64,000 nucleotides of DNA from Clostridia bacterium (GTDB lineage Bacteria > Bacillota > Clostridia > TANB77 > CAG-508), in the NCBI GenBank assembly GCA_900752335.1, contig CAADUZ010000024.1, positions 2,200-66,199 on the forward strand, given 5' to 3'. The notes below the pieces were generated by a model. That model did not search any database. It worked only from the letters and a program-made list of their open reading frames with translations, and was not told the DNA's origin. The position numbers and the translations under genes are program-made. Positions 1,057 to 51,993 of the stretch are shown here, piece by piece. The stretch's first letter is position 1, and each line of letters opens with the position of its first letter.

Positions 1057-1722
1057 TTACACTACTTCTCTTATGGAAGTTGACTCTACCTTACCGTTTT
1101 CGTCAAAGTCTATTGAAAAACTATAATAATGTTTCGTTGTAAAAATATTCTGCTCGCCCCAGATAATTCCTTCATATACTATTCCTGCATCATACGAATA
1201 GTGAAAAGTCTTATCCTTATATTCCGTTATATCGCTTGGCTCTCCTAATAGTGCAACCACTTTTTCACTTGATAGGCCTATTAAGTTATTATCTATATTA
1301 TACTGTTGCATTTTTAGATACAATGCGTCAGGATTTTGACGTTCTTTAAATAAAAAATTTCCTAAAAAAGCTATTAGCAAAACAATAATAATTGCTAATA
1401 CTATCATTAAAATTATAAATTTTTTGCTTTTTCTCATGCCTATATAAATTGCAATATACAAGCACATTATTATAATACTATAATAATAGATTTGATAAAG
1501 CAAGAGCCTAATGCATGTGTTAAAGAATTCATATGACGTGTCCGAAACAACTACACCCATCATTTGTAATGGAATTGTTATCAAACTACAGCCTGCAATT
1601 ATTCCTATTAACGAATATGCAATATCTTTGCCACCTTTTAAATTTTTTCTTAAATTATATATCCATATGCAAAATATTGATGGTATTGCCAAAACTATTA
1701 GCACGTATAAATTCCAACTCAT
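1057..1722 (-). CDS. hypothetical membrane protein
   Basis: 221 aa with several hydrophobic helices; no recognisable motif. Confidence 0.4.
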   Translation of the reverse strand: MSWNLYVLIVLAIPSIFCIWIYNLRKNLKGGKDIAYSLIGIIAGCSLITIPLQMMGVVVSDTSYEFFNTCIRLLLYQIYYYSIIIMCLYIAIYIGMRKSKKFIILMIVLAIIIVLLIAFLGNFLFKERQNPDALYLKMQQYNIDNNLIGLSSEKVVALLGEPSDITEYKDKTFHYSYDAGIVYEGIIWGEQNIFTTKHYYSFSIDFDENGKVESTSIREVV

Positions 1723-1827
1723 TTTATATCACCTATTATATTATATCAAAAAACATGTCATAAGTATATAAAAATTGTTGCTTTTCTCCTTTTATTAGTA
1801 TATTATGTATGTGTGAGGTGAATTTTT

Positions 1828-2809
1828 ATGATTAATTCAGATTTAAATCCTGAATACGTAAATGATTTTTTGGATTACTCTGCAGTTTCATTAAATAAAT
1901 CTGCTAATTCTGTTAAAGAATATAATTATGATTTAAGTATCTTTTTAAAATATATGAAAATTGAAATGAGATTAACCAAAGAAACTGACTTTGACAAAAT
2001 ATATATTAGAGATTTTTCTTTAGATGATTTGAGGAAAATAACTACTAGAGATATAAATGCTTTTCTTTCATATCTTGCATTAAACAAACGGTAGCAAGCC
2101 TGCCACAAGAGCTAGAAAAATATCTACTATACGAATATTTTTTGCATATTTGTATGACCAAAAAATAATAAATGAAAACCCTGCTATAGGTATAAAAACA
2201 CCTAAACTTGAAAAACGTATGCCAAAATATTTGTCATTGGACGACAGTAAAAGGCTATTAAGTGTAACTTTAGACGACAATGATGAGAATAAAGAAAGAG
2301 ATTATGCTATTATTACCCTATTTCTTAATTGTGGATTACGTTTATCGGAATTAGTTGGAATTAATATTTCAAATATCGATTTTAGTGAATATAAACTAAC
2401 AGTTATAGGAAAAGGCAATAAAGAACGTACCATTTACCTTAATGAAGCCTGTATTGAGGCGATTCAAGAATATATTAAGGTTCGTCCAAAAGAAGGCGTA
2501 AAAAAGGATTCTAAAGGTTCTGACAAGGCTTTGTTTTTAAGTAAAAGAAATGAAAGAATTAGTAATCGTACTGTACAATATATTGTAAAAAGAGAATTAC
2601 AAAAAGCAGGACTAGATACGTCTAAATATTCAACACACAAATTAAGACATACTGCTGCTACTTTAATGTATCAATACGGACATGTAGACATACGAGCATT
2701 GCAAGAACTTCTTGGCCATGAAAGTATTGCTACTACAGAAATATATACTCACGTAAGCAATGAACAAGTGAGAAATGCTGTAGAGAGTAATCCTTTAAAT
2801 CATAAATAG
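1828..2809 (+). pseudogene. tyrosine site-specific recombinase (XerC/XerD family), split by a frameshift near 2083-2092
   Basis: ORF 1828-2094 carries the N-terminal core-binding part. Reading upstream from ORF 2150-2809 in its own frame gives NGSKPATRARKISTIRIFFAYL, the conserved XerD motif. The C-terminal ORF has HKLRHTAATL...LGHESIATTEIYTHV (R-H-R-Y catalytic residues). Removing one base in aaacaaacgg would fuse the two frames. Confidence 0.7.
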
Positions 2810-2867
2810 TTATAAATTAATACCAGCACTTTGCTTTACATAACAACATATTATATATAAATATGTT

Positions 2868-3471
2868 ATGAAAGGAAGTGTTGTTTTATTGAATTTGGAA
2901 AATAAAAAAATCGGATTTGCTTTTACTGGCTCTTTTTGTACATTTAAAGCCGTAATCGAAGAATTAAAAAAACTAAAAAAAGAAAAGGCAGATATTCTCC
3001 CTATCATGTCTTTTAATTCATATAATTTAGATACTAAATTTGGAACAGCTAGTGAATATATAAATGAAATAAAAGAAATTACCGAAAAAAGTGAAATAAT
3101 TCATACAATTCAAGGTGCAGAACCAATCGGACCTAAAAAACTAACAGATATAATGGTAATAGCTCCATGTTCTCGGAAATACTCTTGCCAAACTTGCTAA
3201 TGGAATAACAGATACACCAGTACTTATGGCTGCAAAATCTCATTTGAGAAATAACAACCCTATAGTTATTGCTATATCTACAAATGATGGACTATCTGGC
3301 AGTGCAGAAAACATTGGCAAGTTATTAAATAGAAATAATTATTTTTTTGTGCCATTTAAACAGGATAACCCAATAACCAAGCCACGTTCATTAGTAGCTG
3401 ATTTTAAATATTTAATTCCTACTATAGAAAAAGCGTTAGAAAAAGAACAAATAGAACCAATACTTTTGTGA
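2868..3471 (+). pseudogene. dpaB: dipicolinate synthase subunit B (DpaB/SpoVFB flavoprotein), frameshifted near 3171-3177
   Basis: ORF1 has GFAFTGSFCTF and ends IAPCSRKYSCQTC*. The +1 frame reads NTLAKLANGITDTPVLMAAKSHLRN, which continues into ORF2 (ISTNDGLSG...). Overall architecture matches B. subtilis SpoVFB. One extra base (tctCgga) breaks the frame. Confidence 0.7.
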
Positions 3472-3515
3472 ATGTAAGTGCTGTAAGAGATAACAAGAAG
3501 TTTTAAATAAAATAT

Positions 3516-3665
3516 TAATAATAATGTATGTTTTGCATTTTTATTTGAGTGCTTAAGGTGGGGACCAACAAGTTTACAAACTGTTAAACGAAACATAAGT
3601 TTAGTTTATACAGTTTGTACGTAGTTGGGGGCCGAAAATACAAATGCAAACATACATTATTATGT
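3516..3665. repeat. nested palindromic element between convergent dpaB and pbp genes
   Basis: Outer inverted repeat taataatgtatgttttgcattt / aaatgcaaacatacattatta. Inner imperfect inverted repeat ccaacaagtttacaaactgt / acagtttgtacgtagttgg, both with G-rich shoulders. Confidence 0.5.
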
Positions 3666-3704
3666 TCTTAATACTTTATTTAAAAGCTGGTTATTGCAAC
3701 TTTC

Positions 3705-5561
3705 TTATTTCAAATAATCTTCTATTATATTCTTCGTTATTGGTAGTAAATAATGGCTTCCTCCTCTATTTTCTACATTTTCTATCATATTAATCATTAA
3801 TAGCTGCTTATCTGCTTTGTCGCTTACTACAAATGAGTTAAACCAGCCTAGCTCTTCCCCACTTTCTTCTTGCGATGCTTTTAGTTCTGCCGTTCCTGTT
3901 TTCCCTGCAAGTGTTATGCCATCTATTTCTGCTTCATGTCCTGTTCCATTTGGGTTTTCCACTACTTGTATTAAGTCGTCTTTTATTTCTTCTGCAGCTT
4001 CTTTTGTAAATGCATTTTCTATCCAATATTCTGGATTTGTTTTTTTAGTTGAAGAATATTCTATGTATGGCTTTATCATGTTTCCTTCATTTACAAATGC
4101 TGAATATATTGATGCTACATGCAATGGATTTACCAGTATTTTTCCTTGTCCATATCCAGAATCTGCAAGTCCTATTTCTGAAGTGAATTTATTATCTTCT
4201 GCAAATTGTGAAGTAGACATTCCTATTGGAAATTCTAATTCTTTATCAAATCCTATTTTTAATAATTGCTCTGCAAATTTTTCTGAACCTATTTTTATTG
4301 CTGCTTTTGCAAAATATACATTGTCTGAATATATTAATGCATTTCTTAAGTTAGCATTTCCTCCATATGTTGTTAATGTTGTAACTTTGTAATCTCCCCA
4401 GCTTTCGTCTTTTTGCCAACTTAATGTACTGCTTCCAAAACTCTCTGTGGCTGTAAAACTATCTGTTGTGAGTCCTATTGCTCCTGTAATTGGCTTAAAT
4501 GAAGAACCTGGTACCCATGTGCTTTCATACCTAGCAAACATTGGTGTATTCTTATCTGAACTTAATTTCTGCCATTCTTCATCTGTAAAACCTTGTATGA
4601 ATTTGTTTGAGTCAAAACTTGGTGTGCTTACCATAGCTAGCACTTCTCCTGTTTTTGGATTCATTGCTACTGAAAAGCCGTTATCCCCATCAAATTCTTC
4701 ATATATCTTGCTTTGCAAGTCTATGTCTATTGTTGTTTTAATATCTTCCCCATCTTCCATATCTGTTTCTGCTATTGTTGCTAATACTGCTTCATTCGCA
4801 TCAACCATATAGATTCCAGTTCCATTTTTTCCTCTTAATCTATCTTCAAATGCTAGTTCTAAACCATTTTTTCCGATTAAACTACTTGCTGTGTAGCCTT
4901 CTCCCTTATGAGCCTCTAGCTCCTCTTCGCTTATACCACGAATATATCCAACAAGGTGAGCTGCAATTTCTCCATATGGATATTCTCTTTCTCCATTTTC
5001 ATTATTTGTAGCAAGCACTTTTCCATTTCTATCTAGTATATCTCCTCTTGAACCAGAATTTGAGTATACCCTTATTTTATAGCTTTCTTCAAGTTCAGGA
5101 AATATTAAGTTAGAATACCAGTTTAAATAATATTTGTTATCGTCTTGTCTATCAAATGTTGCGGTATTTGAAAAATTTATCGTTCCTGCTAATGTGTCAA
5201 ATGTCATATCGTAATTTACACTTTTATTCTCTTCGTCATATACCAAATTAGATATTTCTATATTTGTAGCTTCTATTCCCTCATATATATTTTGATTTCT
5301 TGATAAAAATGTTTCTTTATCAACACGTTCTTTTGTTGAATCTGATAATAGCAGATACATGCCTTCATAGTCTTGATTTTTTAAACATTCTATATATGCG
5401 TTTAGAACTTCATCTGGCTTGTTTTTATCCATGTTTGATATTATATACCATGCTGTAAAACCTGCTATTAATAGTAGAACTATGACTGTAATTATGATTA
5501 CGGTCTTTTTACTAACTTTCTTTGTTCCTACTACTTCTTCTTTGCTTGTTTCTTCTTCCAT
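3705..5561 (-). CDS. class B penicillin-binding protein (transpeptidase) with NTF2-like/MecA-type N-terminal domain
   Basis: 618 aa; N-terminal TM segment; SxxK (PGSSFKP), SDN (IYSDNVYF) and KTG (GKTGTAEL) motifs. Confidence 0.85.
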   Translation of the reverse strand: MEEETSKEEVVGTKKVSKKTVIIITVIVLLLIAGFTAWYIISNMDKNKPDEVLNAYIECLKNQDYEGMYLLLSDSTKERVDKETFLSRNQNIYEGIEATNIEISNLVYDEENKSVNYDMTFDTLAGTINFSNTATFDRQDDNKYYLNWYSNLIFPELEESYKIRVYSNSGSRGDILDRNGKVLATNNENGEREYPYGEIAAHLVGYIRGISEEELEAHKGEGYTASSLIGKNGLELAFEDRLRGKNGTGIYMVDANEAVLATIAETDMEDGEDIKTTIDIDLQSKIYEEFDGDNGFSVAMNPKTGEVLAMVSTPSFDSNKFIQGFTDEEWQKLSSDKNTPMFARYESTWVPGSSFKPITGAIGLTTDSFTATESFGSSTLSWQKDESWGDYKVTTLTTYGGNANLRNALIYSDNVYFAKAAIKIGSEKFAEQLLKIGFDKELEFPIGMSTSQFAEDNKFTSEIGLADSGYGQGKILVNPLHVASIYSAFVNEGNMIKPYIEYSSTKKTNPEYWIENAFTKEAAEEIKDDLIQVVENPNGTGHEAEIDGITLAGKTGTAELKASQEESGEELGWFNSFVVSDKADKQLLMINMIENVENRGGSHYLLPITKNIIEDYLK

Positions 5562-6886: not shown

Positions 6887-8077
6887 CTATTTTACTAATT
6901 CCATTGTTTCTCTTGCTATCATAAGTTCCTCATTTGTTGGAACTACATATACTTTTACTTTAGAATCAGGTGTAGAAATTTCTACTTCTTTTCCTCTGCA
7001 ATTATTCTTCTCTTCATCTATTTTTACACCTAAATATCCTAAATAATCACATATTTCTTTTCTTACGTCTATGCCATTTTCTCCTATTCCAGCTTCAAAT
7101 GTTATAACGTCAACGCCTTTCATTTGTGCTGCAAATCTTCCTATATATCCCACTACTTGATATACAAAGTTGTCTATAGCAAGCTGTGCTCTTTTATTTC
7201 CTTCTTTTGCTGCTGCTTCAATATCTCTATCGTCGATGCTTACACCAGAAAGTCCTAATTTTCCAGACTTTTTGTTAAGTACAGTGTTCATTTCTGAAGG
7301 TGATATTTTTTCTTTATCCATCAAATATGTTAAAACAGATGGATCTACGTCGCCAGACCTTGAACCCATAGGAACTCCTGCAAGTGGTGTTAATCCCATA
7401 GAAGTATCTATAGATTTTCCACCATCTACAGCACAAAGACTAGCACCTTGTCCTAAATGGCAAGAAATTATTTTTAAATCTTCTATTGGTTTTCCCATTA
7501 TTTCTGCTACTCTGTTTGCAACAAATTTGTGAGAAGTACCATGTGCACCATATTTACGAATTTTGTATTTTTCATAATACTCGTAAGGTATTGCATACAT
7601 ATATGCCTTTTCTGGCATTGTTTGATGGAATGCTGTATCAAATACTGCAACATTTGGCTTTCCTGGTAATTTTTCCATACAAGCTGTAATACCTTGTAAA
7701 TGTGCTGGGTTATGTAAAGGTGCAAATTCTATTGCTTCTTCTATTCCTTTTACAACCTCATCGTTTATTAACACAGATTTTGTGAACTTTTCTCCACCAT
7801 GTACAATTCTATGTCCTATTGCATCTATTTCAGATAAGTCTTTTATAACACCATAATCCTTGTGTAGTAATTGTTCAATTACAAGTTCTAAACCATCTTT
7901 ATGATTTTTAATTTCTTTTTCTATTTTGTATTTCTCTTCTCCTACTCTATGTGTTAAGAAAGAACCATCTATTCCTATTCTTTCTAAATATCCTTTTGCC
8001 ATTACTTCTTCTGTTTCCATATCAATTAATTGATATTTTAAAGATGAACTTCCACAGTTTACAACTAAAACTTTCAT
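6887..8077 (-). CDS. ackA: acetate kinase
   Basis: 396 aa; starts MKVLVVNCGSSSLKYQL, the canonical AckA N-terminus. Confidence 0.95.
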   Translation of the reverse strand: MKVLVVNCGSSSLKYQLIDMETEEVMAKGYLERIGIDGSFLTHRVGEEKYKIEKEIKNHKDGLELVIEQLLHKDYGVIKDLSEIDAIGHRIVHGGEKFTKSVLINDEVVKGIEEAIEFAPLHNPAHLQGITACMEKLPGKPNVAVFDTAFHQTMPEKAYMYAIPYEYYEKYKIRKYGAHGTSHKFVANRVAEIMGKPIEDLKIISCHLGQGASLCAVDGGKSIDTSMGLTPLAGVPMGSRSGDVDPSVLTYLMDKEKISPSEMNTVLNKKSGKLGLSGVSIDDRDIEAAAKEGNKRAQLAIDNFVYQVVGYIGRFAAQMKGVDVITFEAGIGENGIDVRKEICDYLGYLGVKIDEEKNNCRGKEVEISTPDSKVKVYVVPTNEELMIARETMELVK

Positions 8078-8152
8078 TAAAAAACCTCCTATAAGTATTA
8101 ATTATTTATTAAAAATTTATATCGTTAAATTTTTAAAGCTATTTAAATATTT

Positions 8153-9178
8153 TTACATAGTTCCAGCTTGTACAGCTGTAATCGCTACAACGCCAACTAT
8201 ATCGTCGCTATTGCAGCCTCTTGATAAATCATTTACAGGTCTTGCAATACCTTGGCAAAGTGGTCCATATGCTTCTGCTTTTGCTAGTCTTTGAACTAGT
8301 TTATATCCAATATTTCCCGCATCTAAATTTGGAAATATTAAAGTATTTGCTTCTCCTTTTAGTGGGCTTCCTGGTGCCTTACTTGCATTTATTTCTGGTA
8401 CTATTGCTGCATCTAATTGTAGCTCTCCGTCACAAATTAGATCTGGCATTTTTTCTTTTAATAATTTAGTAGCCTCTATTACTTTTTCTGTTAATTCTGA
8501 ATGTGCACTTCCATAAGTAGAATATGAAAGCATTGCTACTTTTGATTCTTTTCCTGTTAATTGTTTAAAGCTTTTGCTTGAAGATATAGCTATCTCTGAT
8601 AATTCGTCTGCTGTTGGGTTTTCTACTAAACCACTATCTCCAAATATGAATACACCATTTTCTCCATATTTGCAATCTGGAACTACCATTAAGAAAAATG
8701 CTGATACAAGTTTTGTTCCTGGCGCTGTTTTTAATATTTGAAGTGCAGGTCTTAATGTATTTGCTGTAGAATGGCAAGCACCTGATACTAAACCATCTGC
8801 ATGTCCTAATTTTACCATCATTGTACCAAAATACATGTTATCTTTTAGCATTTCTCTTGCTTTTTCTTCTGTCATACCCTTTGCTTTTCTTAACTCATAA
8901 AAAGCATTTACATATTCTTCATATCTCTCTGAAGTTTCTGGATTTATAACTGGTATTCCTGAAATATCTATATTATTTGCTTTTGCTCTCTTTTTTGCAT
9001 CTTCTTCATTTCCTATAAGAATTACGTTTGCGAAACCTTCTTGTTTAACCTTTGCTGCTGCTTCTAATACTCTTATATCTTCGCTTTCTGTTAATATTAT
9101 AGTTTTTATATCTTTTTTTGCTTTATTTTTTATATCGTCTATAAAAGCCATAAAAAATGTACCTCCCTTAAATTTCAA
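8153..9178 (-). CDS. pta: phosphate acetyltransferase
   Basis: Pta-like throughout; sits directly upstream of ackA. The true start is probably the internal Met (MAFIDDIKNKAK, about 9151). Confidence 0.9.
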   Translation of the reverse strand: MKFKGGTFFMAFIDDIKNKAKKDIKTIILTESEDIRVLEAAAKVKQEGFANVILIGNEEDAKKRAKANNIDISGIPVINPETSERYEEYVNAFYELRKAKGMTEEKAREMLKDNMYFGTMMVKLGHADGLVSGACHSTANTLRPALQILKTAPGTKLVSAFFLMVVPDCKYGENGVFIFGDSGLVENPTADELSEIAISSSKSFKQLTGKESKVAMLSYSTYGSAHSELTEKVIEATKLLKEKMPDLICDGELQLDAAIVPEINASKAPGSPLKGEANTLIFPNLDAGNIGYKLVQRLAKAEAYGPLCQGIARPVNDLSRGCNSDDIVGVVAITAVQAGTM

Positions 9179-11165: not shown

Positions 11166-11251
11166 GCGAGTATGCTGGAACTGGCAGACAGGCACGTTTG
11201 AGGGGCGTGTGCTTTAGGAGCGTATGGGTTCAAGTCCCATTACTCGCACCA
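11166..11251 (+). tRNA. tRNA-Leu (anticodon GAG), class II with long variable arm
   Basis: Acceptor stem GCGAGTA/TACTCGC; T-arm ATGGG-TTCAAGT-CCCAT; anticodon stem CACGT/GCGTG with loop TTGAGGG (U33, GAG, G37); long variable arm; 3' CCA encoded. Confidence 0.8.
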
Positions 11252-17060: not shown

Positions 17061-17120
17061 GGAACAAGGGGACACACAATTTGTTTCAAAAATGAAACAA
17101 ATTGTGTGTCCCCTTGTTCC
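17061..17120. terminator. long perfect hairpin (28-bp stem) between convergent smpB and fba; also a member of a repeat family
   Basis: ggaacaaggggacacacaatttgtttca-aaaa-tgaaacaaattgtgtgtccccttgttcc. A related copy lies at 52784-52915. Confidence 0.6.
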
Positions 17121-17136
17121 ACCTTGTTCCAATTTT

Positions 17137-18066
17137 CTATGCTTTATTGCTTGAACCGAAGACGTCTCTTATTTTATGTTCTACTGTTTCTTTTATTAAT
17201 TCTCTTGCTGGTGTTAAGTATGCTCTTGGATCAAATTTTGAAGGTTCTTCTGTAAATACTTTTCTTATTGCTGCTGTCATTGCTAATCTTAAGTCTGTAT
17301 CTACATTTATTTTTGATACACCAGATACACTTGCTTCATGTAGCATTTCATCTGGTACACCTTTCGCTCCTGGTATATCTCCCCCATATTTATTACACAT
17401 TTCTACTAATTCTGGTATAACTGTAGATGCACCATGTAAAACTATTGGTGTGTTTGGTATTCTTTCTTTTACTTTTGCTAATATATCAAATCTTAATTTT
17501 GCTTCTCCTTTAAATTTATATGCTCCATGGCTTGTTCCAATAGCTATTGCAAGTGAGTCGCATCCTGTTCTTTCCACAAATTCCTTTGCTTGGTCTGGGT
17601 CTGTATACATTGCATCAGAAGCTGCTACGTTTACGTCATCTTCTATTCCTGCGAGTTTCCCAAGTTCTGCTTCTACTACTACGCCTTTTGAGTGTGCGTA
17701 TTCTACAACTTTCTTTGTTAAAGCTACATTTTCTTCAAAGTCGTATTTTGAACCATCTATCATAACAGATGAAAAACCGTTATCTATACACATTTTGCAT
17801 GTTTCAAAGTCTGGACCATGGTCTAGGTGTAATGCTACTGGTATATCATATTCGTCAAGTGCTGCCTCTACCATTTTTCTTAAATATCCTATTCTTGCAT
17901 ATTTTATTGCACTAGATGATGCTTGTAAAATAACTGGCGAATTTTGGCTAGCTGCTGCATCTACTATTCCTTGTATTATCTCCATGTTGTTTACGTTAAA
18001 TGCACCTATTGCAAATTTTTCTTTCATTGATTTTTCAAACATATCTTTTGTAGTTACTAATGGCAT
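17137..18066 (-). CDS. fba: class II fructose-bisphosphate aldolase
   Basis: 309 aa; MPLVTTKDMF...FAIGAFNVNNMEI matches FbaA. Confidence 0.9.
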   Translation of the reverse strand: MPLVTTKDMFEKSMKEKFAIGAFNVNNMEIIQGIVDAAASQNSPVILQASSSAIKYARIGYLRKMVEAALDEYDIPVALHLDHGPDFETCKMCIDNGFSSVMIDGSKYDFEENVALTKKVVEYAHSKGVVVEAELGKLAGIEDDVNVAASDAMYTDPDQAKEFVERTGCDSLAIAIGTSHGAYKFKGEAKLRFDILAKVKERIPNTPIVLHGASTVIPELVEMCNKYGGDIPGAKGVPDEMLHEASVSGVSKINVDTDLRLAMTAAIRKVFTEEPSKFDPRAYLTPARELIKETVEHKIRDVFGSSNKA

Positions 18067-18224
18067 AATAATTCCTCCTTTAAATATCCATTCAAATTAC
18101 AAGGTAATTATATATTAATTTGATTTTTTAATCAAGTATCTAAATTCTTAATTTTTTATTTTCAAATACATAAAGTACCCCTCACTTCCTAGTTGGAAAT
18201 GAGGGGATTTTTGAGGTTTAAGAG

Positions 18225-19640
18225 TTACCTATAAGACGTCGAAAACGATCTTACAAGACCATAGGGGCAAATCCTGAACAGATAGTCTCTTCCAAGAATT
18301 GCAACGTCCTTTGGATTAAGTTCGTCCGCAATTCTGGCGGAAAACATTTGCTTGGATTTGAGTTCTCCATGGTTTACCAGTACGAGTTTCAGGCAGTTGA
18401 ACTTTTTAAGGAAAGCCAACATTTCGTCCGCTTTTGCGTGTGCAGACATTTCGTTTGTATACTCTACGTCCGCATACTTTCTCTTTACCAGTCCTCCTGC
18501 TGTTACCACTTCTCCGTTTGGCGTGTCTTTGAGTTCACGCCCGAGAGTTCCTTCGGCTGTATACCCAGTAAACTGAATCAAGCAGCCTTCCCTTCCTATA
18601 TAGGAAGGGATATAGACCTGTGCAGGTCCATAAGTCCCCATTCCAGAGGTGGTAACAATGATTTTACAACCATTGTCTTCAAGAAGGCTTGGTCTGGATT
18701 CTTTGTCAACATACGTCAGATTTTCCGGTAAGAAATCCAACATGTCTTCTTTGATATCCAAATTCGCCCTTTTGTAGAGCTCCGTGTACCGCAACGCAAG
18801 TTTCCCATCCAGATAGATAGGAATATCTGCACTGATTTTGCCATTTTTCTGCATACACTTAAGCATATACAGAATTTCCTGGCATCTTCCAAGAGAAAAT
18901 ACCATACATACAGCAGTCTTTCCTCTCTTCATGCACGACGTAATATTGTCTTGCACTACCGGAACAATTTCCGTAGAGTCCATATATCCATAAGTGGATT
19001 CTTGAACCAACGTCAGCGGTAAATCCAGCACCCAGTCTGGAAGGTCGGGAATGTCAAAAAAGACATTCTTGTTGTTGTAGTCCCCAGTAAAAAGGATATT
19101 GATATCCTCATACCCTGGATAACTGATTTGCACCAAAATCATCGCAGCACCAATCAGATGGCCATTCTTGAAGAATGTAGCTTTAATGTTTTTGCTAACA
19201 TAAACTGGCAGCTCGTAATCGCAGCCAACTACTTTCTTCAAAGTGAGTGCAACATTGTCCTCGTTATAGAGGGGCTGCACATGGTTTCTTTTGGCGGTGT
19301 CTTTTAACACCTTGTACGAATCATATAGTGCAAGCGGCAAAAAGATTTCTGTTTGTTTTGTAGCGTATATCTTACCTCCATATCCGGTTTTGTCAAGTAA
19401 CGGTAGCCGTCCAACATGGTCTACATGATTGTGCGTAATAAGCACAAAATCAATGTTGTCGCTGTCAAACGGGAATGAACGGTTATACTCTTGGTAATCC
19501 CGCTCTTGGAATAGTCCGCAGTCAACTACGAACTTGGCGCTTTCGCCATTAGGATACTTGACAATCACAAGATTGCAAGAACCTGTCACTTCTGGTTGTA
19601 ATGCCATTATGTCAGCATAAAACCGTTCTTTTGAGCCCAT
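18225..19640 (-). CDS. MBL-fold beta-CASP family metallo-hydrolase (RNase J/CPSF-like nuclease)
   Basis: 471 aa; HNHVDHVGRLP (HxHxDH). Markedly higher GC (about 42%) and different codon usage from the flanks. Confidence 0.7.
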   Translation of the reverse strand: MGSKERFYADIMALQPEVTGSCNLVIVKYPNGESAKFVVDCGLFQERDYQEYNRSFPFDSDNIDFVLITHNHVDHVGRLPLLDKTGYGGKIYATKQTEIFLPLALYDSYKVLKDTAKRNHVQPLYNEDNVALTLKKVVGCDYELPVYVSKNIKATFFKNGHLIGAAMILVQISYPGYEDINILFTGDYNNKNVFFDIPDLPDWVLDLPLTLVQESTYGYMDSTEIVPVVQDNITSCMKRGKTAVCMVFSLGRCQEILYMLKCMQKNGKISADIPIYLDGKLALRYTELYKRANLDIKEDMLDFLPENLTYVDKESRPSLLEDNGCKIIVTTSGMGTYGPAQVYIPSYIGREGCLIQFTGYTAEGTLGRELKDTPNGEVVTAGGLVKRKYADVEYTNEMSAHAKADEMLAFLKKFNCLKLVLVNHGELKSKQMFSARIADELNPKDVAILGRDYLFRICPYGLVRSFSTSYR

Positions 19641-19768
19641 AGAATTCCTCCATCCTATAATAAAATTATTTATTTATAGCCTCAAACTATAAACATACTT
19701 ATATTATACAGCGAAATTTCTTTAGGCACAAGCTTATTTTAAGTTTTTTACCAATTTTATTAATTTTT

Positions 19769-19942
19769 TTACTGATTTTTATTATTATTCCTATAGCTGC
19801 TGCACATAGATTCGTCAGACTGCTTTGTATTGCATCCAACTATTGGAGTTACTATTATTTGCTCTAATTTACACTCTTGGCATCCTTCGTCATTATATTT
19901 ACAGCTTGTTACTGTACAATTTATTTTTTGATTTTTTTGCAT
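19769..19942 (-). CDS. small Cys-rich protein, DUF1540-like (57 aa)
   Basis: Not in the ORF track (under 60 aa). MQKNQKINCTVTSCKYNDEGCQECKLEQIIVTPIVGCNTKQSDESMCSSY… with RBS AAGGAGG; the CxVxxCxYN…C pattern matches DUF1540. Confidence 0.5.
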   Translation of the reverse strand: MQKNQKINCTVTSCKYNDEGCQECKLEQIIVTPIVGCNTKQSDESMCSSYRNNNKNQ

Positions 19943-20050: not shown

Positions 20051-20794
20051 TTATTTTTCTTTCATATTACTTTTACAGTTTTCATTAGTAGTAATACATT
20101 TTTCCTCTGGCATTTTGAAACTCAAATACCAATTTATTCCATTTCTGTTTTTTTCAATTTCTTTATTTCTTTCTAGTAATTCATTAAAAGTTTTAGGTGG
20201 TGGAACAATTACGGGCTCTCTTGGTATCCAATTTGCTGCAGTCATAGCGTTTGAGCAGTCCGACATTTGAAGTGCTTGAACTATTCTTACTATTTCTGGT
20301 ATAAACCTTCCAATATTCATTGGATATATCAAAATTGTTCTTATTATGCCTTTATCGTCTACAATATATACGTTTCTTACTGTTTCCGTATTACTTATAT
20401 CACTTGAAAACATGCCATATTTTCTAGCTATTTCTCCATTTCTATCTGCTATTATTGGGAATGGTATTCGTATTCCTGTTTTGCAATATATATCATAAAC
20501 CCACGCTAAATGAGAACTATTACTATCCACACTTAAGCCCATTAAACAAGTATTAATATTTTCAAAATATGTATTTGCCCTTGCAAATGCTATCATTTCG
20601 CTTGTGCAAACAGGTGTAAAATCCGCTGGGTGAGAGAATAACACAAGCCATTTTCCTTTATAATCATTTAGTGAAATATTCCCCATAGTTGTTACAGCTT
20701 CAAAATCTGGAGCTCTTTGCCCTATGCGCACATTTCCGTTCATCATTATTTCGTAATCCATAAAAATATAACTCCTTTCAATTATCAAACTCAT
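20051..20794 (-). CDS. peroxiredoxin (Prx6-like, 1-Cys type)
   Basis: FSHPADFTPVCTSE peroxidatic Cys motif. True start probably the internal MMNGNVRIGQRAPDF. Confidence 0.8.
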   Translation of the reverse strand: MSLIIERSYIFMDYEIMMNGNVRIGQRAPDFEAVTTMGNISLNDYKGKWLVLFSHPADFTPVCTSEMIAFARANTYFENINTCLMGLSVDSNSSHLAWVYDIYCKTGIRIPFPIIADRNGEIARKYGMFSSDISNTETVRNVYIVDDKGIIRTILIYPMNIGRFIPEIVRIVQALQMSDCSNAMTAANWIPREPVIVPPPKTFNELLERNKEIEKNRNGINWYLSFKMPEEKCITTNENCKSNMKEK

Positions 20795-50946: not shown

Positions 50947-51993
50947 CTACGATAATTGATACTTGGTGTTATCATGCACGAGTTCAAGTGTCAGCCTACA
51001 TTTGGAATACTTCCCAGGATGAGCCATAACATTGTAAATTATGTCTTCAAACATATAATTTACTGTATTGCTCAATTCTCTTGCACCAGTGTCCAGTTTC
51101 AAGGAACTTGCTGCAATTTCCTCGAAGATTTTTCCATCATACTGTAAGCTTATTCCGGCATCTCTTAACTCTCTTTGGTATCTTCTGAAGATAGAGAGTT
51201 TAGATTTCTTTAAGATTTGAACTAAATCCTCCTTTTCGAGTGGATTCATCTCCACAATAGTGTCAATTCTTCCTACAAACTCTTCCGGCAGTCCGTACTG
51301 AACCAAGTCTTCTTTGGTGTATCTAGTGCTTTCTGCAGTTTGTGCTTGCGAGCTGCTAAAGCCGATTTGGTTCTGTCCCAGCCTTTTCTTTCTGATTTTG
51401 TCTATTCCAGAAAAAGCTCCGCAGAATACAATAATCAAGCCGCTCGTGTCAAACACTTCTTCAGAAACCAAGTTGTATTTAGCACCTTCTACGATTTTTA
51501 AAAGGCTCTTCAAAACTTCAACACCCGATACGTCACTTGAGTCAGTGCCAGCTTTTTTGTCAATTTCATCTATTATTAGCATGCCGTGCTGTGCCTTTTC
51601 CAAGTCATAGTCAGCTGCTTCTAATAGATTTTCGAGCATATCCTCCACGTCGCCACCATAGTAACCTTCTTTTGTGTACTTTGTGGCATCTTCAATAGTG
51701 TAGGGTATACGTAGCCTCTTGGCAATTTGTTTGAACGTTTCTGTTTTACCAGTCCCGCTCTTTCCCATTACCAAGATATTGGTTTTAATTGACTTCAGGT
51801 AAATAGCTCTATAGATAGCAGTTATAATTTTTCTAACTGCAGTATCTTGACCTATGATATACTGCCGTACATTGTTTTCCATATTTTGAATTGGTGGAAT
51901 GCTTCTTCTTTTTTTGCCTTTGTTAGCTCCTTTCTTAAATTGTTTCATGCCTCCCGAATCTTGTAATTCTCTCTTTTTTCCCCGTGTTTCCAT
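50947..51993 (-). CDS. ClpX-like AAA+ ATPase lacking the zinc-finger domain
   Basis: 348 aa; IIGQDTAVRKI, NILVMGKSGTGKT, YTIEDATKYTKEGYYGGDVEDML, GMLIIDEIDK, EEFVGRIDTIVE all parallel ClpX motifs. N-terminus is a basic Lys/Arg-rich tail. GC about 40% versus about 25% in the flanks. Confidence 0.7.
   Translation of the reverse strand: METRGKKRELQDSGGMKQFKKGANKGKKRRSIPPIQNMENNVRQYIIGQDTAVRKIITAIYRAIYLKSIKTNILVMGKSGTGKTETFKQIAKRLRIPYTIEDATKYTKEGYYGGDVEDMLENLLEAADYDLEKAQHGMLIIDEIDKKAGTDSSDVSGVEVLKSLLKIVEGAKYNLVSEEVFDTSGLIIVFCGAFSGIDKIRKKRLGQNQIGFSSSQAQTAESTRYTKEDLVQYGLPEEFVGRIDTIVEMNPLEKEDLVQILKKSKLSIFRRYQRELRDAGISLQYDGKIFEEIAASSLKLDTGARELSNTVNYMFEDIIYNVMAHPGKYSKCRLTLELVHDNTKYQLS

Follow-up and report, generated by a model that had tools for sequence, protein, structure and literature searches.

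The stand-alone bacterial beta-CASP ribonuclease TTHA0252, from Thermus thermophilus (PDB 2DKF, 3IEK-3IEM), consists of one polypeptide, that is, a metallo-beta-lactamase (MBL) domain with an inserted beta-CASP domain, plus a C-terminal RMMBL segment, and has no further domains. Related enzymes include archaeal aCPSF1/FttA, eukaryotic CPSF73/IntS11, RNase J (the beta-CASP RNase that Firmicutes usually have), and Cas14 of type VII CRISPR-Cas, with beta-CASP proteins having been classified into two branches (PMC8501993). The subject here is a gene for a 471-amino-acid (aa) protein of this kind, found within 64,000 nucleotides (nt) of DNA from a Clostridia bacterium of lineage CAG-508 (GenBank assembly GCA_900752335.1, contig CAADUZ010000024.1, forward-strand positions 2,200 to 66,199), a stretch that in its whole length is referred to below as the window. 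The gene lies between a class II fructose-bisphosphate aldolase gene (fba) and a DUF1540 gene, and is much richer in guanine plus cytosine (GC) than its surroundings. An original prediction, made from the window's sequence, took this as the mark of a single-gene insertion. What the comparisons show is an old resident rather than a recent foreign insertion, one which lineages exchange laterally by replacement of the resident homolog, and for which raised GC is a property of the gene family rather than a sign of recent arrival.

The protein resembles TTHA0252 in domain make-up, and TTHA0252 is also the best structural match of its AlphaFold model (mean predicted local distance difference test 87.7; predicted template modelling, TM, score 0.89). 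The Foldseek match has a probability of 1.00, with TM scores of 0.79 (query) and 0.86 (target) over 458 columns. The two proteins nevertheless are only 27% identical, with that of the window 40 residues longer (471 versus 431). The same catalytic core and motif set are seen with aCPSF1/FttA and with CPSF73/IntS11 (TM 0.76-0.82; 0.79-0.82 for aCPSF1). By sequence, the top PDB match is archaeal aCPSF1 (2XR1; E 1.5e-37; residues 34-430), followed by TTHA0252 (2.7e-32) and then by Cas14 (8YHD/9J9E; about 1e-31), CPSF73, and IntS11. Unlike aCPSF1, the window's protein has no pair of N-terminal KH domains but begins at the MBL domain, and it scores 191 bits against the aCPSF1 profile (TIGR03675), below the cut-off of 580 and over profile positions 196-616 only. 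The highest-scoring NCBIfam profile is that of Cas14 (NF045584; 234 bits; residues 17-438), though here too the score is well below the cut-off, which is 800 bits, and only the nuclease core is covered (profile positions 11-425 of 612). The listed contexts of the gene hold housekeeping genes and no cas neighbours, CRISPR arrays not having been searched for specifically. RNase J belongs to the same superfamily, presumably with the same two-zinc chemistry, but to the other branch: RNase J chains are absent both from the 26 PDB sequence matches (E<=1e-3) and from the top 50 fold matches, and the window's protein terminates with its RMMBL segment, lacking a C-terminal dimerisation domain.

Within the protein, three Pfam families score above their cut-offs: Lactamase_B (43 bits), Beta-Casp (PF10996; 80 bits versus 27.7; residues 254-370), and RMMBL (PF07521; 31.9 bits versus 21.6; residues 390-445). 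An HNHVDHVG motif is present, of which the HxHxDH portion (H70-N-H72-V-D74-H75) aligns with THAHLDH of aCPSF1. Residues D40, H70/H72/D74/H75, H161, D187, E214, H401, and H424 are invariant across an alignment of 20 sequences that are 61-100% identical. From that alignment and from what is generally understood of the family, D40, H70-H75, H161, and D187 are what we take to be MBL motifs 1-4 (Asp, HxHxDH, His, Asp). E214, H401, and H424, in turn, are candidates for beta-CASP motifs A (Asp/Glu), B (His), and C (His), and a histidine at motif C reportedly marks those members which act on RNA. Homologs number more than 1,500, the best 120 of them nearly all 470-483 aa in length and 60-100% identical, with two shorter fragments. 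Relative to its counterpart at locus L004 (compared loci are numbered with an L), the gene displays 12% amino-acid differences versus 51% differences at four-fold sites, and this excess of synonymous change is taken as support for a functional gene.

The protein thus is a stand-alone beta-CASP nuclease of the CPSF73/TTHA0252 branch with all of its catalytic motifs intact, and, judging from motifs and predicted fold, most likely a zinc-dependent ribonuclease with 5'-3' exo- and/or endonuclease activity. By analogy, a dual exo/endo activity such as is seen with RNase J is plausible. That is, the protein is an uncharacterised yet ordinary-looking member of a known nuclease family. A reading of it as part of a defence system was dropped, as PADLOC returned no defence-protein family at E<=0.01.

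What is not ordinary is the gene's composition. Across 18150-19649, 300-nt windows have GC of 0.40-0.46 versus 0.24-0.33 in neighbouring ones, rising to as much as 0.39 within fba, and the nuclease gene is the sole long open reading frame (ORF) of the GC-rich stretch. With 60-nt windows, values of 0.38-0.50 within this ORF drop to 0.23 just 5' of the start codon (19640-19699) and are 0.15-0.17 past the terminator (18080-18179); the switch, that is, coincides with the gene's start and stop codons. Promoter and leader (19641-19768; 128 nt) have a GC of only 0.22. The ORF's own GC is 0.427, that is, 0.496, 0.333, and 0.451 at first, second, and third codon positions (GC1, GC2, and GC3), as against 0.296 for the window as a whole. 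The window's 62 long ORFs have a mean GC3 of 0.198 with a standard deviation of 0.053, the gene itself included, from which the nuclease gene departs by about 4.8 standard deviations. The only other GC3 outlier, at 0.387, is a ClpX-like gene at 50947-51993. Third positions in the nuclease gene are A.25, C.22, G.23, and T.30, with A down from a background of 0.49, C up from 0.085, and G up from 0.09, and the rise in GC3 is distributed evenly over the gene's full length. Identical junctions are found in more than 20 independent assemblies, so the jump is neither an assembly artefact nor a chimera. The composition jump, in short, is confirmed as real and gene-shaped. To that extent the original prediction was sound: an abrupt switch in GC and codon usage confined to one gene is what windowed GC, GC3, and third-position counts all indicate, and Pfam bears out the identities that it gave to the MBL/beta-CASP ORF, to fba downstream, and to the DUF1540 and 1-Cys peroxiredoxin genes upstream (Table 1).

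Table 1. Features of the nuclease gene, of its control regions, and of the bordering genes (window coordinates).
Feature	Position	Strand	Basis
1-Cys peroxiredoxin gene, outer upstream flank	20051..20794	-	Pfam AhpC-TSA + 1-cysPrx_C; synteny
DUF1540 gene, 57 aa, upstream border of slot	19769..19942	-	Pfam DUF1540, 34.7 bits
Putative promoter, AT-rich: -35-like TTGTGC and extended -10 TGTATAAT	19703..19733	-	sequence reading
Predicted 5' leader, of which the two hairpins overlap and exclude one another	19655..19695	-	folding
Predicted leader hairpin H1	19671-19695	-	folding
Predicted leader hairpin H2, ending right before the ribosome-binding site	19655-19679	-	folding
Shine-Dalgarno sequence GGAGG, 6 nt 5' of ATG	19647..19651	-	sequence
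Beta-CASP MBL nuclease gene, 471 aa	18225..19640	-	ORF list, Pfam, AlphaFold model, fold matches, composition
Intrinsic-terminator-like hairpin, 18 nt 3' of stop	18178..18206	-	terminator scan
Class II fructose-bisphosphate aldolase gene (fba), downstream border of slot	17137..18066	-	Pfam F_bP_aldolase, 359 bits

Was the gene, then, inserted? A scan of one genome per species yielded 355 matched stretches, of which the best 80 are used for comparison, and those 80 are all from uncultured low-GC gut Clostridia (e.g., CAG:567 and CAG:245) rather than from the higher-GC relatives that had been expected. The order DUF1540-nuclease-fba is present in 13 of these 80 species representatives, with orthologs of 57-90% aa identity, and in nine further representatives the gene lies in a DUF1540/fba neighbourhood, inverted in four of them. 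In the remaining loci the gene is found among other housekeeping genes (formate-tetrahydrofolate ligase/UvrA, LysS/PhoH-like, and others), with each chromosomal context corresponding to one clade of the nuclease gene tree. Overall, DUF1540 is immediately 5' of the gene in 29 loci and fba immediately 3' in 21-24, and additional metagenomic species have the same arrangement. As these loci were found via the nuclease gene, the exact DUF1540 and fba proteins were looked up separately as an independent check, with the 471-aa gene present in 10 of 10 conspecific contig contexts for each. In all, 342 collection blocks list that DUF1540 protein. An empty site, that is, fba directly beside the DUF1540 and peroxiredoxin genes as had been anticipated for relatives, was seen neither in these 20 contexts nor in the 13 species representatives nor in the further metagenomic species: the slot is always filled.

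Divergence of the gene also parallels that of the genes around it. With L084, the nearest species, aa identities are 85-88% for the peroxiredoxin, 90% for the nuclease, 96% for the aldolase, and 98-100% for DUF1540, and among conspecific contigs nt identities are 95.6-100% over the nuclease gene, as against 96.5-100% for flanking DNA, with all conspecific alleles that were measured being high in GC (GC3 0.44-0.47). Low-GC relatives thus carry orthologs at the same locus with the same GC bias, which is the observation that the original prediction had named as its refutation, and therefore a recent insertion that relatives lack is not supported. As to marks of mobility, their absence was correctly anticipated. 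The 10-kb ORF list around the gene holds no integrase, a repeat search at the borders found AT-rich chance matches only, and the window's sole tRNA (11166-11251) is 7 kb away. A mobile-element origin was rejected as well, as megablast and tblastn searches of phages and plasmids gave no match above about 32% aa identity and IMG/VR, when scanned, gave none.

Lateral exchange of the gene does nonetheless occur, and in this sense the acquisition initially proposed was half right: a single-gene unit moves between lineages, but it does so by replacing a resident homolog rather than by entering an empty site. Gene and flank identities were compared over 280 pairs of loci. Where inheritance is vertical, the nuclease gene is more conserved than its flanks, i.e., 0.88 versus 0.81 for the window and L004, and 0.99 versus 0.93 for L031 and L034. 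Other close hosts possess divergent alleles, with flank and nuclease identities of 0.94 and 0.66 (L026/L037), 0.89 and 0.63 (L056/L071), and 0.81 and 0.56 (L066/L068). With L026 versus L037, flanks of 85-100% nt identity drop to 57-77% over the unit, and the low-identity segment begins about 100 nt 5' of the start codon and ends about 70 nt 3' of the stop codon. Conversely, L088, for which Pta and RluD are just 72% and 57% identical to those of the window, has a nuclease 87% identical to the window's. Its similarity to the window's clade begins approximately 96 nt 5' of the start codon and, versus L004, amounts to 86% nt identity over 1565 nt (the ORF plus 96 nt upstream and 51 nt downstream) with no similarity beyond; a counterpart of the terminator hairpin lies inside this common segment. 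As for the window itself, L004, L007, L008, and L009 have flanks equidistant from those of the window (about 0.86-0.87 nt for fba; 86-87% aa for the ATPase and 87-90% aa for SmpB), whereas the nuclease gene is at 0.80 nt and 87-88% aa relative to L004 and L007 versus 0.67 nt and 72-74% aa relative to L008 and L009. The promoter-leader-ORF-terminator unit is, that is, a hotspot of homologous allele replacement, with near relatives having alleles that are approximately 35-40% diverged and distant genomes having near-identical ones.

The GC bias extends throughout the family. GC3 of the nuclease gene is above the local median in all 84 loci, by 0.115 on average (range 0.00 to +0.33), and among 1,165 ORFs only 7.5% exceed +0.1. 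Clades differ in the size of the excess, with values of +0.10 to +0.28 for the window's own DUF1540/fba clade and +0.14 to +0.33 for a LysS/PhoH-like one, while certain others are near zero. Within its clade, the window's allele ranks first in GC3 (0.45 versus 0.28-0.39).

Several possible causes of this excess were considered and rejected. Amino-acid composition would not suffice, as first and second positions together average only +0.03, whereas the mean for third positions is +0.115 and the window's gene reaches +0.25 there. Codon bias as associated with high expression was set aside since orthologs of the highly expressed neighbour fba are below the local GC3 median; GC3 of the window's fba is 0.177 as measured in its antisense-shadow frame call. 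A localised RNA structure or overlapping element is contradicted by GC3 being raised gene-wide, by the lack of any Rfam match, and by codon columns, with no G- or C-ending codon fixed at any column of a conserved residue.

The account that we consider probable, though well short of certain, is of a long-resident, functional beta-CASP nuclease in an allele-replacement hotspot, with its GC excess arising via a GC-favouring process linked to recombination. The gene is a long-resident one for a zinc nuclease, shared by a whole family of gut Clostridia with small genomes of low GC. Its place in the window's clade is fixed, with DUF1540 on one side and fba on the other, and there it forms a self-contained unit along with a putative promoter, a structured leader, and a terminator. 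That unit is recurrently swapped between lineages by homologous recombination. Residence, the bias throughout the family, replacement of the cassette, and intact motifs and fold are what the data show, while RNase activity, the promoter, and the cause of the GC excess are proposals. A GC-favouring process coupled to this recombination may sustain the excess against AT-biased mutation. Candidates for this process are GC-biased gene conversion or, instead, repeated arrival of alleles which are less AT-decayed. A recombination-linked cause is favoured because the unit is a recombination hotspot. Across alleles, furthermore, GC3 correlates with GC at first and second positions (r 0.77) and also with GARP/FYMINK amino-acid content, which points to pressure on all codon positions, that is, beyond codon choice. 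Within the window's species, minor alleles of the nuclease gene include 56 GC-to-AT versus 24 AT-to-GC changes, implying a mutational equilibrium of about 0.24 GC versus an actual 0.43; the equivalent counts for flanks are 51 versus 45, with an implied equilibrium of 0.30 versus an actual 0.32. Most syntenic orthologs are saturated relative to one another at synonymous sites, with the GC excess persisting, and a single allele clade spans GC3 of 0.28-0.45, a range at odds with one common clock of decay.

A number of points weigh against this account. The polymorphism counts are based on 12 haplotypes only, polarisation by outgroup yields the opposite sign (29 versus 16), and an AT bias among polymorphisms is equally expected of an imported allele that is slowly decaying. 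The opposite sign probably stems from the outgroups being AT-richer, and the outgroup-polarised counts are distrusted for this and for saturation of the outgroups. The host phylogeny is based on a few flanking genes rather than on whole genomes. To our knowledge, GC-biased conversion has been reported in bacteria only with effects far below a GC3 increase of 0.25-0.33. The AT-rich leader is within the exchanged unit and yet is not GC-enriched, while the ClpX-like gene, which is 31 kb away and outside of the hotspot, shares the GC3 anomaly, and this fits better with a functional or regulatory cause.

One alternative is that, in the allele lineage of the window's clade and likewise in other high-GC3 lineages, the resident gene was replaced from an unsampled, GC-richer donor and has been decaying towards host composition since, with GC3 thus reflecting time since import. 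We regard this as unlikely, if deserving of serious consideration. Replacement of the cassette is demonstrated, the excess is variable, clade-structured, and always zero or positive, new polymorphisms are AT-biased with the gene far from its mutational equilibrium, all codon positions are affected as would be expected given a foreign composition, and the third positions of the window's gene are made up like those of a genome of about 45% GC. No donor is in evidence among the best 80 genome matches, however, all of which are low-GC hosts, no allele falls below its host in GC, and all of the traceable transfers are within the low-GC family. Alleles of the same clade and of similar depth, in addition, range in GC3 from 0.28 to 0.45, ill-suited to one shared decay clock, and syntenic orthologs with saturated synonymous sites retain excesses of +0.15 to +0.25. 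Selection on the message is to our minds less likely than import. Here an A-poor, G+C-rich coding sequence would allow the mRNA to escape AU-directed cleavage, whether by the cell's RNases or by the enzyme itself, or else rare, G- or C-ending codons would throttle translation and thereby limit a potentially toxic nuclease. A bias in 84 of 84 lineages and across chromosomal contexts is consistent with such selection, as are its confinement to the ORF with the co-transferred leader remaining AT-rich, its chief component being fewer A-ending codons, and the same anomaly in small genes (cluster c30) beside the nuclease gene and in the ClpX-like gene, which adjoins the nuclease gene in six other genomes though unlinked to it in the window. 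Against such selection, G- and C-ending codons display no site-specific conservation, an excess of about zero in several clades would be odd for a functional requirement, and the correlation with first and second positions and with amino-acid make-up contradicts pure codon choice.

More doubtful still is a combination of these ideas in which the exchanged module is under diversifying or conflict-driven selection, with its coding composition selected at the RNA level and the ClpX-like ATPase serving as a partner. The RNase might, for example, be a target of phages or of competing elements, deeply diverged alleles would be shuffled family-wide, and composition would, for instance, provide escape from AU-directed cleavage by the enzyme itself. 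Least credible, indeed very improbable, is a recent insertion whereby the window's lineage gained a single gene, from a donor of higher GC, at an fba/DUF1540 junction that had been empty until then. An abrupt change of composition and codon usage in one gene only, and in an allele with the top GC3 of its clade (0.45 versus 0.28-0.39), speaks in its favour. But the slot is filled in each of the 20 contexts to which the gene itself did not lead as well as in the 13 species representatives (57-88% identity), gene and flanks have diverged in step from those of L084, L004, and L007, matches to phages and plasmids do not exceed 32% aa identity with none in IMG/VR, and border repeats, a nearby tRNA, and an integrase are all absent.

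Relative to known phenomena, single-gene islets or acquired ORFans likewise combine a one-gene compositional jump with a gene tree that is at odds with flanks. The present gene differs from these in that its slot is never empty, marks of mobility are absent, the gene is conserved family-wide under purifying selection, and exchange involves replacement of an existing homolog. Recombination-associated GC enrichment, or GC-biased gene conversion, has reportedly been described in bacteria, and resembles what is seen here in terms of raised GC3 in a recombining segment, an impact on all codon positions, and opposition to AT-biased mutation. The effect here differs in being several-fold larger than what has reportedly been described and in being confined to one gene and persisting across many species, and the link between the two is one that we infer.

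What is of interest here, in our view moderately so, is that a core gene has remained anomalous in composition. It is a clean exception to the practice of reading compositional outliers as recent foreign insertions, since here a core gene has retained a deviant composition across a bacterial family. As one gene of about 1.6 kb, in hundreds of species, and with GC3 excesses ranging from 0 to +0.33, it represents a compact natural system for studying genome evolution, one in which the effects of biased conversion, of repeated import of alleles, and of selection for mRNA composition should be separable. For RNA biology, it offers an uncharacterised, family-wide, predicted CPSF73-type ribonuclease in low-GC gut Clostridia, along with a possible ClpX-like partner.

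Turning to the control regions, these would make of the gene, as read from its sequence, a self-contained unit of about 1.6 kb consisting of a putative promoter, leader, ORF, and terminator. A TTGACA / TGnTAnAnT arrangement is found 5' of the gene in most of the 84 loci, regardless of which gene is upstream. The predicted terminator hairpin (12 pairs, seven of them G-C, followed by a T-rich tail) separates the nuclease gene from fba, which has its own promoter. In folding, the leader has a minimum free energy of -12.6 kcal/mol (z -2.9), and a hairpin near the Shine-Dalgarno sequence with a score of >=8 is found with 59% of 78 leaders of the nuclease gene versus 14% of 693 control genes. The stems vary by clade among most of L002-L088: CATTGAAT/ATTTAATG, CCTTGA/TCAAGG, CTATAAAT/..TTATAG, and TTAAGTT/AACTTAA. 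Rfam has no family matching leader or gene, and MAFFT plus RNAalifold found no consensus structure over 73 leaders, because hairpin registers differ among clades. A covariance model built from one clade is strong for that clade and weak for others, and it also matches leaders of other genes, including that of fba (18064-18099, minus strand), so the hairpin is treated as a common leader type which is enriched here. A gene-specific leader motif or new riboswitch was rejected given this lack of both consensus and specificity. The leader of the ClpX-like gene has no similarity to that of the nuclease gene.

That ClpX-like gene (50947-51993, minus strand) encodes an AAA+ ATPase without the N-terminal zinc-binding domain, scoring 228 bits against the ClpX profile, under its cut-off of 359. 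Homologs that are 55-63% identical are immediately 3' of the beta-CASP gene at L029, L042, L043, L045, L047, and L069, and their GC3 is likewise raised. The ATPase may be a functional partner of the nuclease, with the same compositional signature. The c30 genes encode proteins of 123-141 aa and are present in one or two copies directly 3' of the nuclease gene (L061, 11536-12476; L066, about 7218-8176; L071; L082). PADLOC gave no match for one c30 copy, and their GC3, at +0.17 over local background, is the largest excess of any gene cluster.

Some further variation is seen around the slot. Relative to the window, the conspecific contigs L103 and L105-L109 are 100% identical (nt) in the peroxiredoxin and DUF1540 genes and 99.7% in fba, with the nuclease gene at 98.1%, which looks like a within-species recombination tract centred on that gene. 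In L050, L074, L077, and L083 the nuclease gene, in its fba/DUF1540 neighbourhood, is on the strand opposite to its neighbours, which is a single-gene inversion or re-insertion inside the slot; no inverted repeats were seen flanking the gene in L050. The ORF at 17102-18118 (plus strand; 338 aa) is an antisense shadow of fba rather than a gene and, as it is longer than fba, it misleads length-based ORF picking. In L093, L095, and L099, which are of the window's species (about 1674-3893), and in L110/L111 (3350-5608), a large serine recombinase gene adjoins a truncated peroxiredoxin gene just upstream of the DUF1540 and nuclease genes. The recombinase is 523-542 aa and consists of Resolvase, Recombinase, and Zn_ribbon_recom domains, and the peroxiredoxin gene has the look of a site at which an integrative element attaches. 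Three different contexts 5' of the peroxiredoxin gene are seen among strains of the species. Lastly, one contig of the same species (L098; ENA ERZ28761995 contig_25) is 1,475,409 bp in length, suggesting a small genome of about 1.5 Mb.

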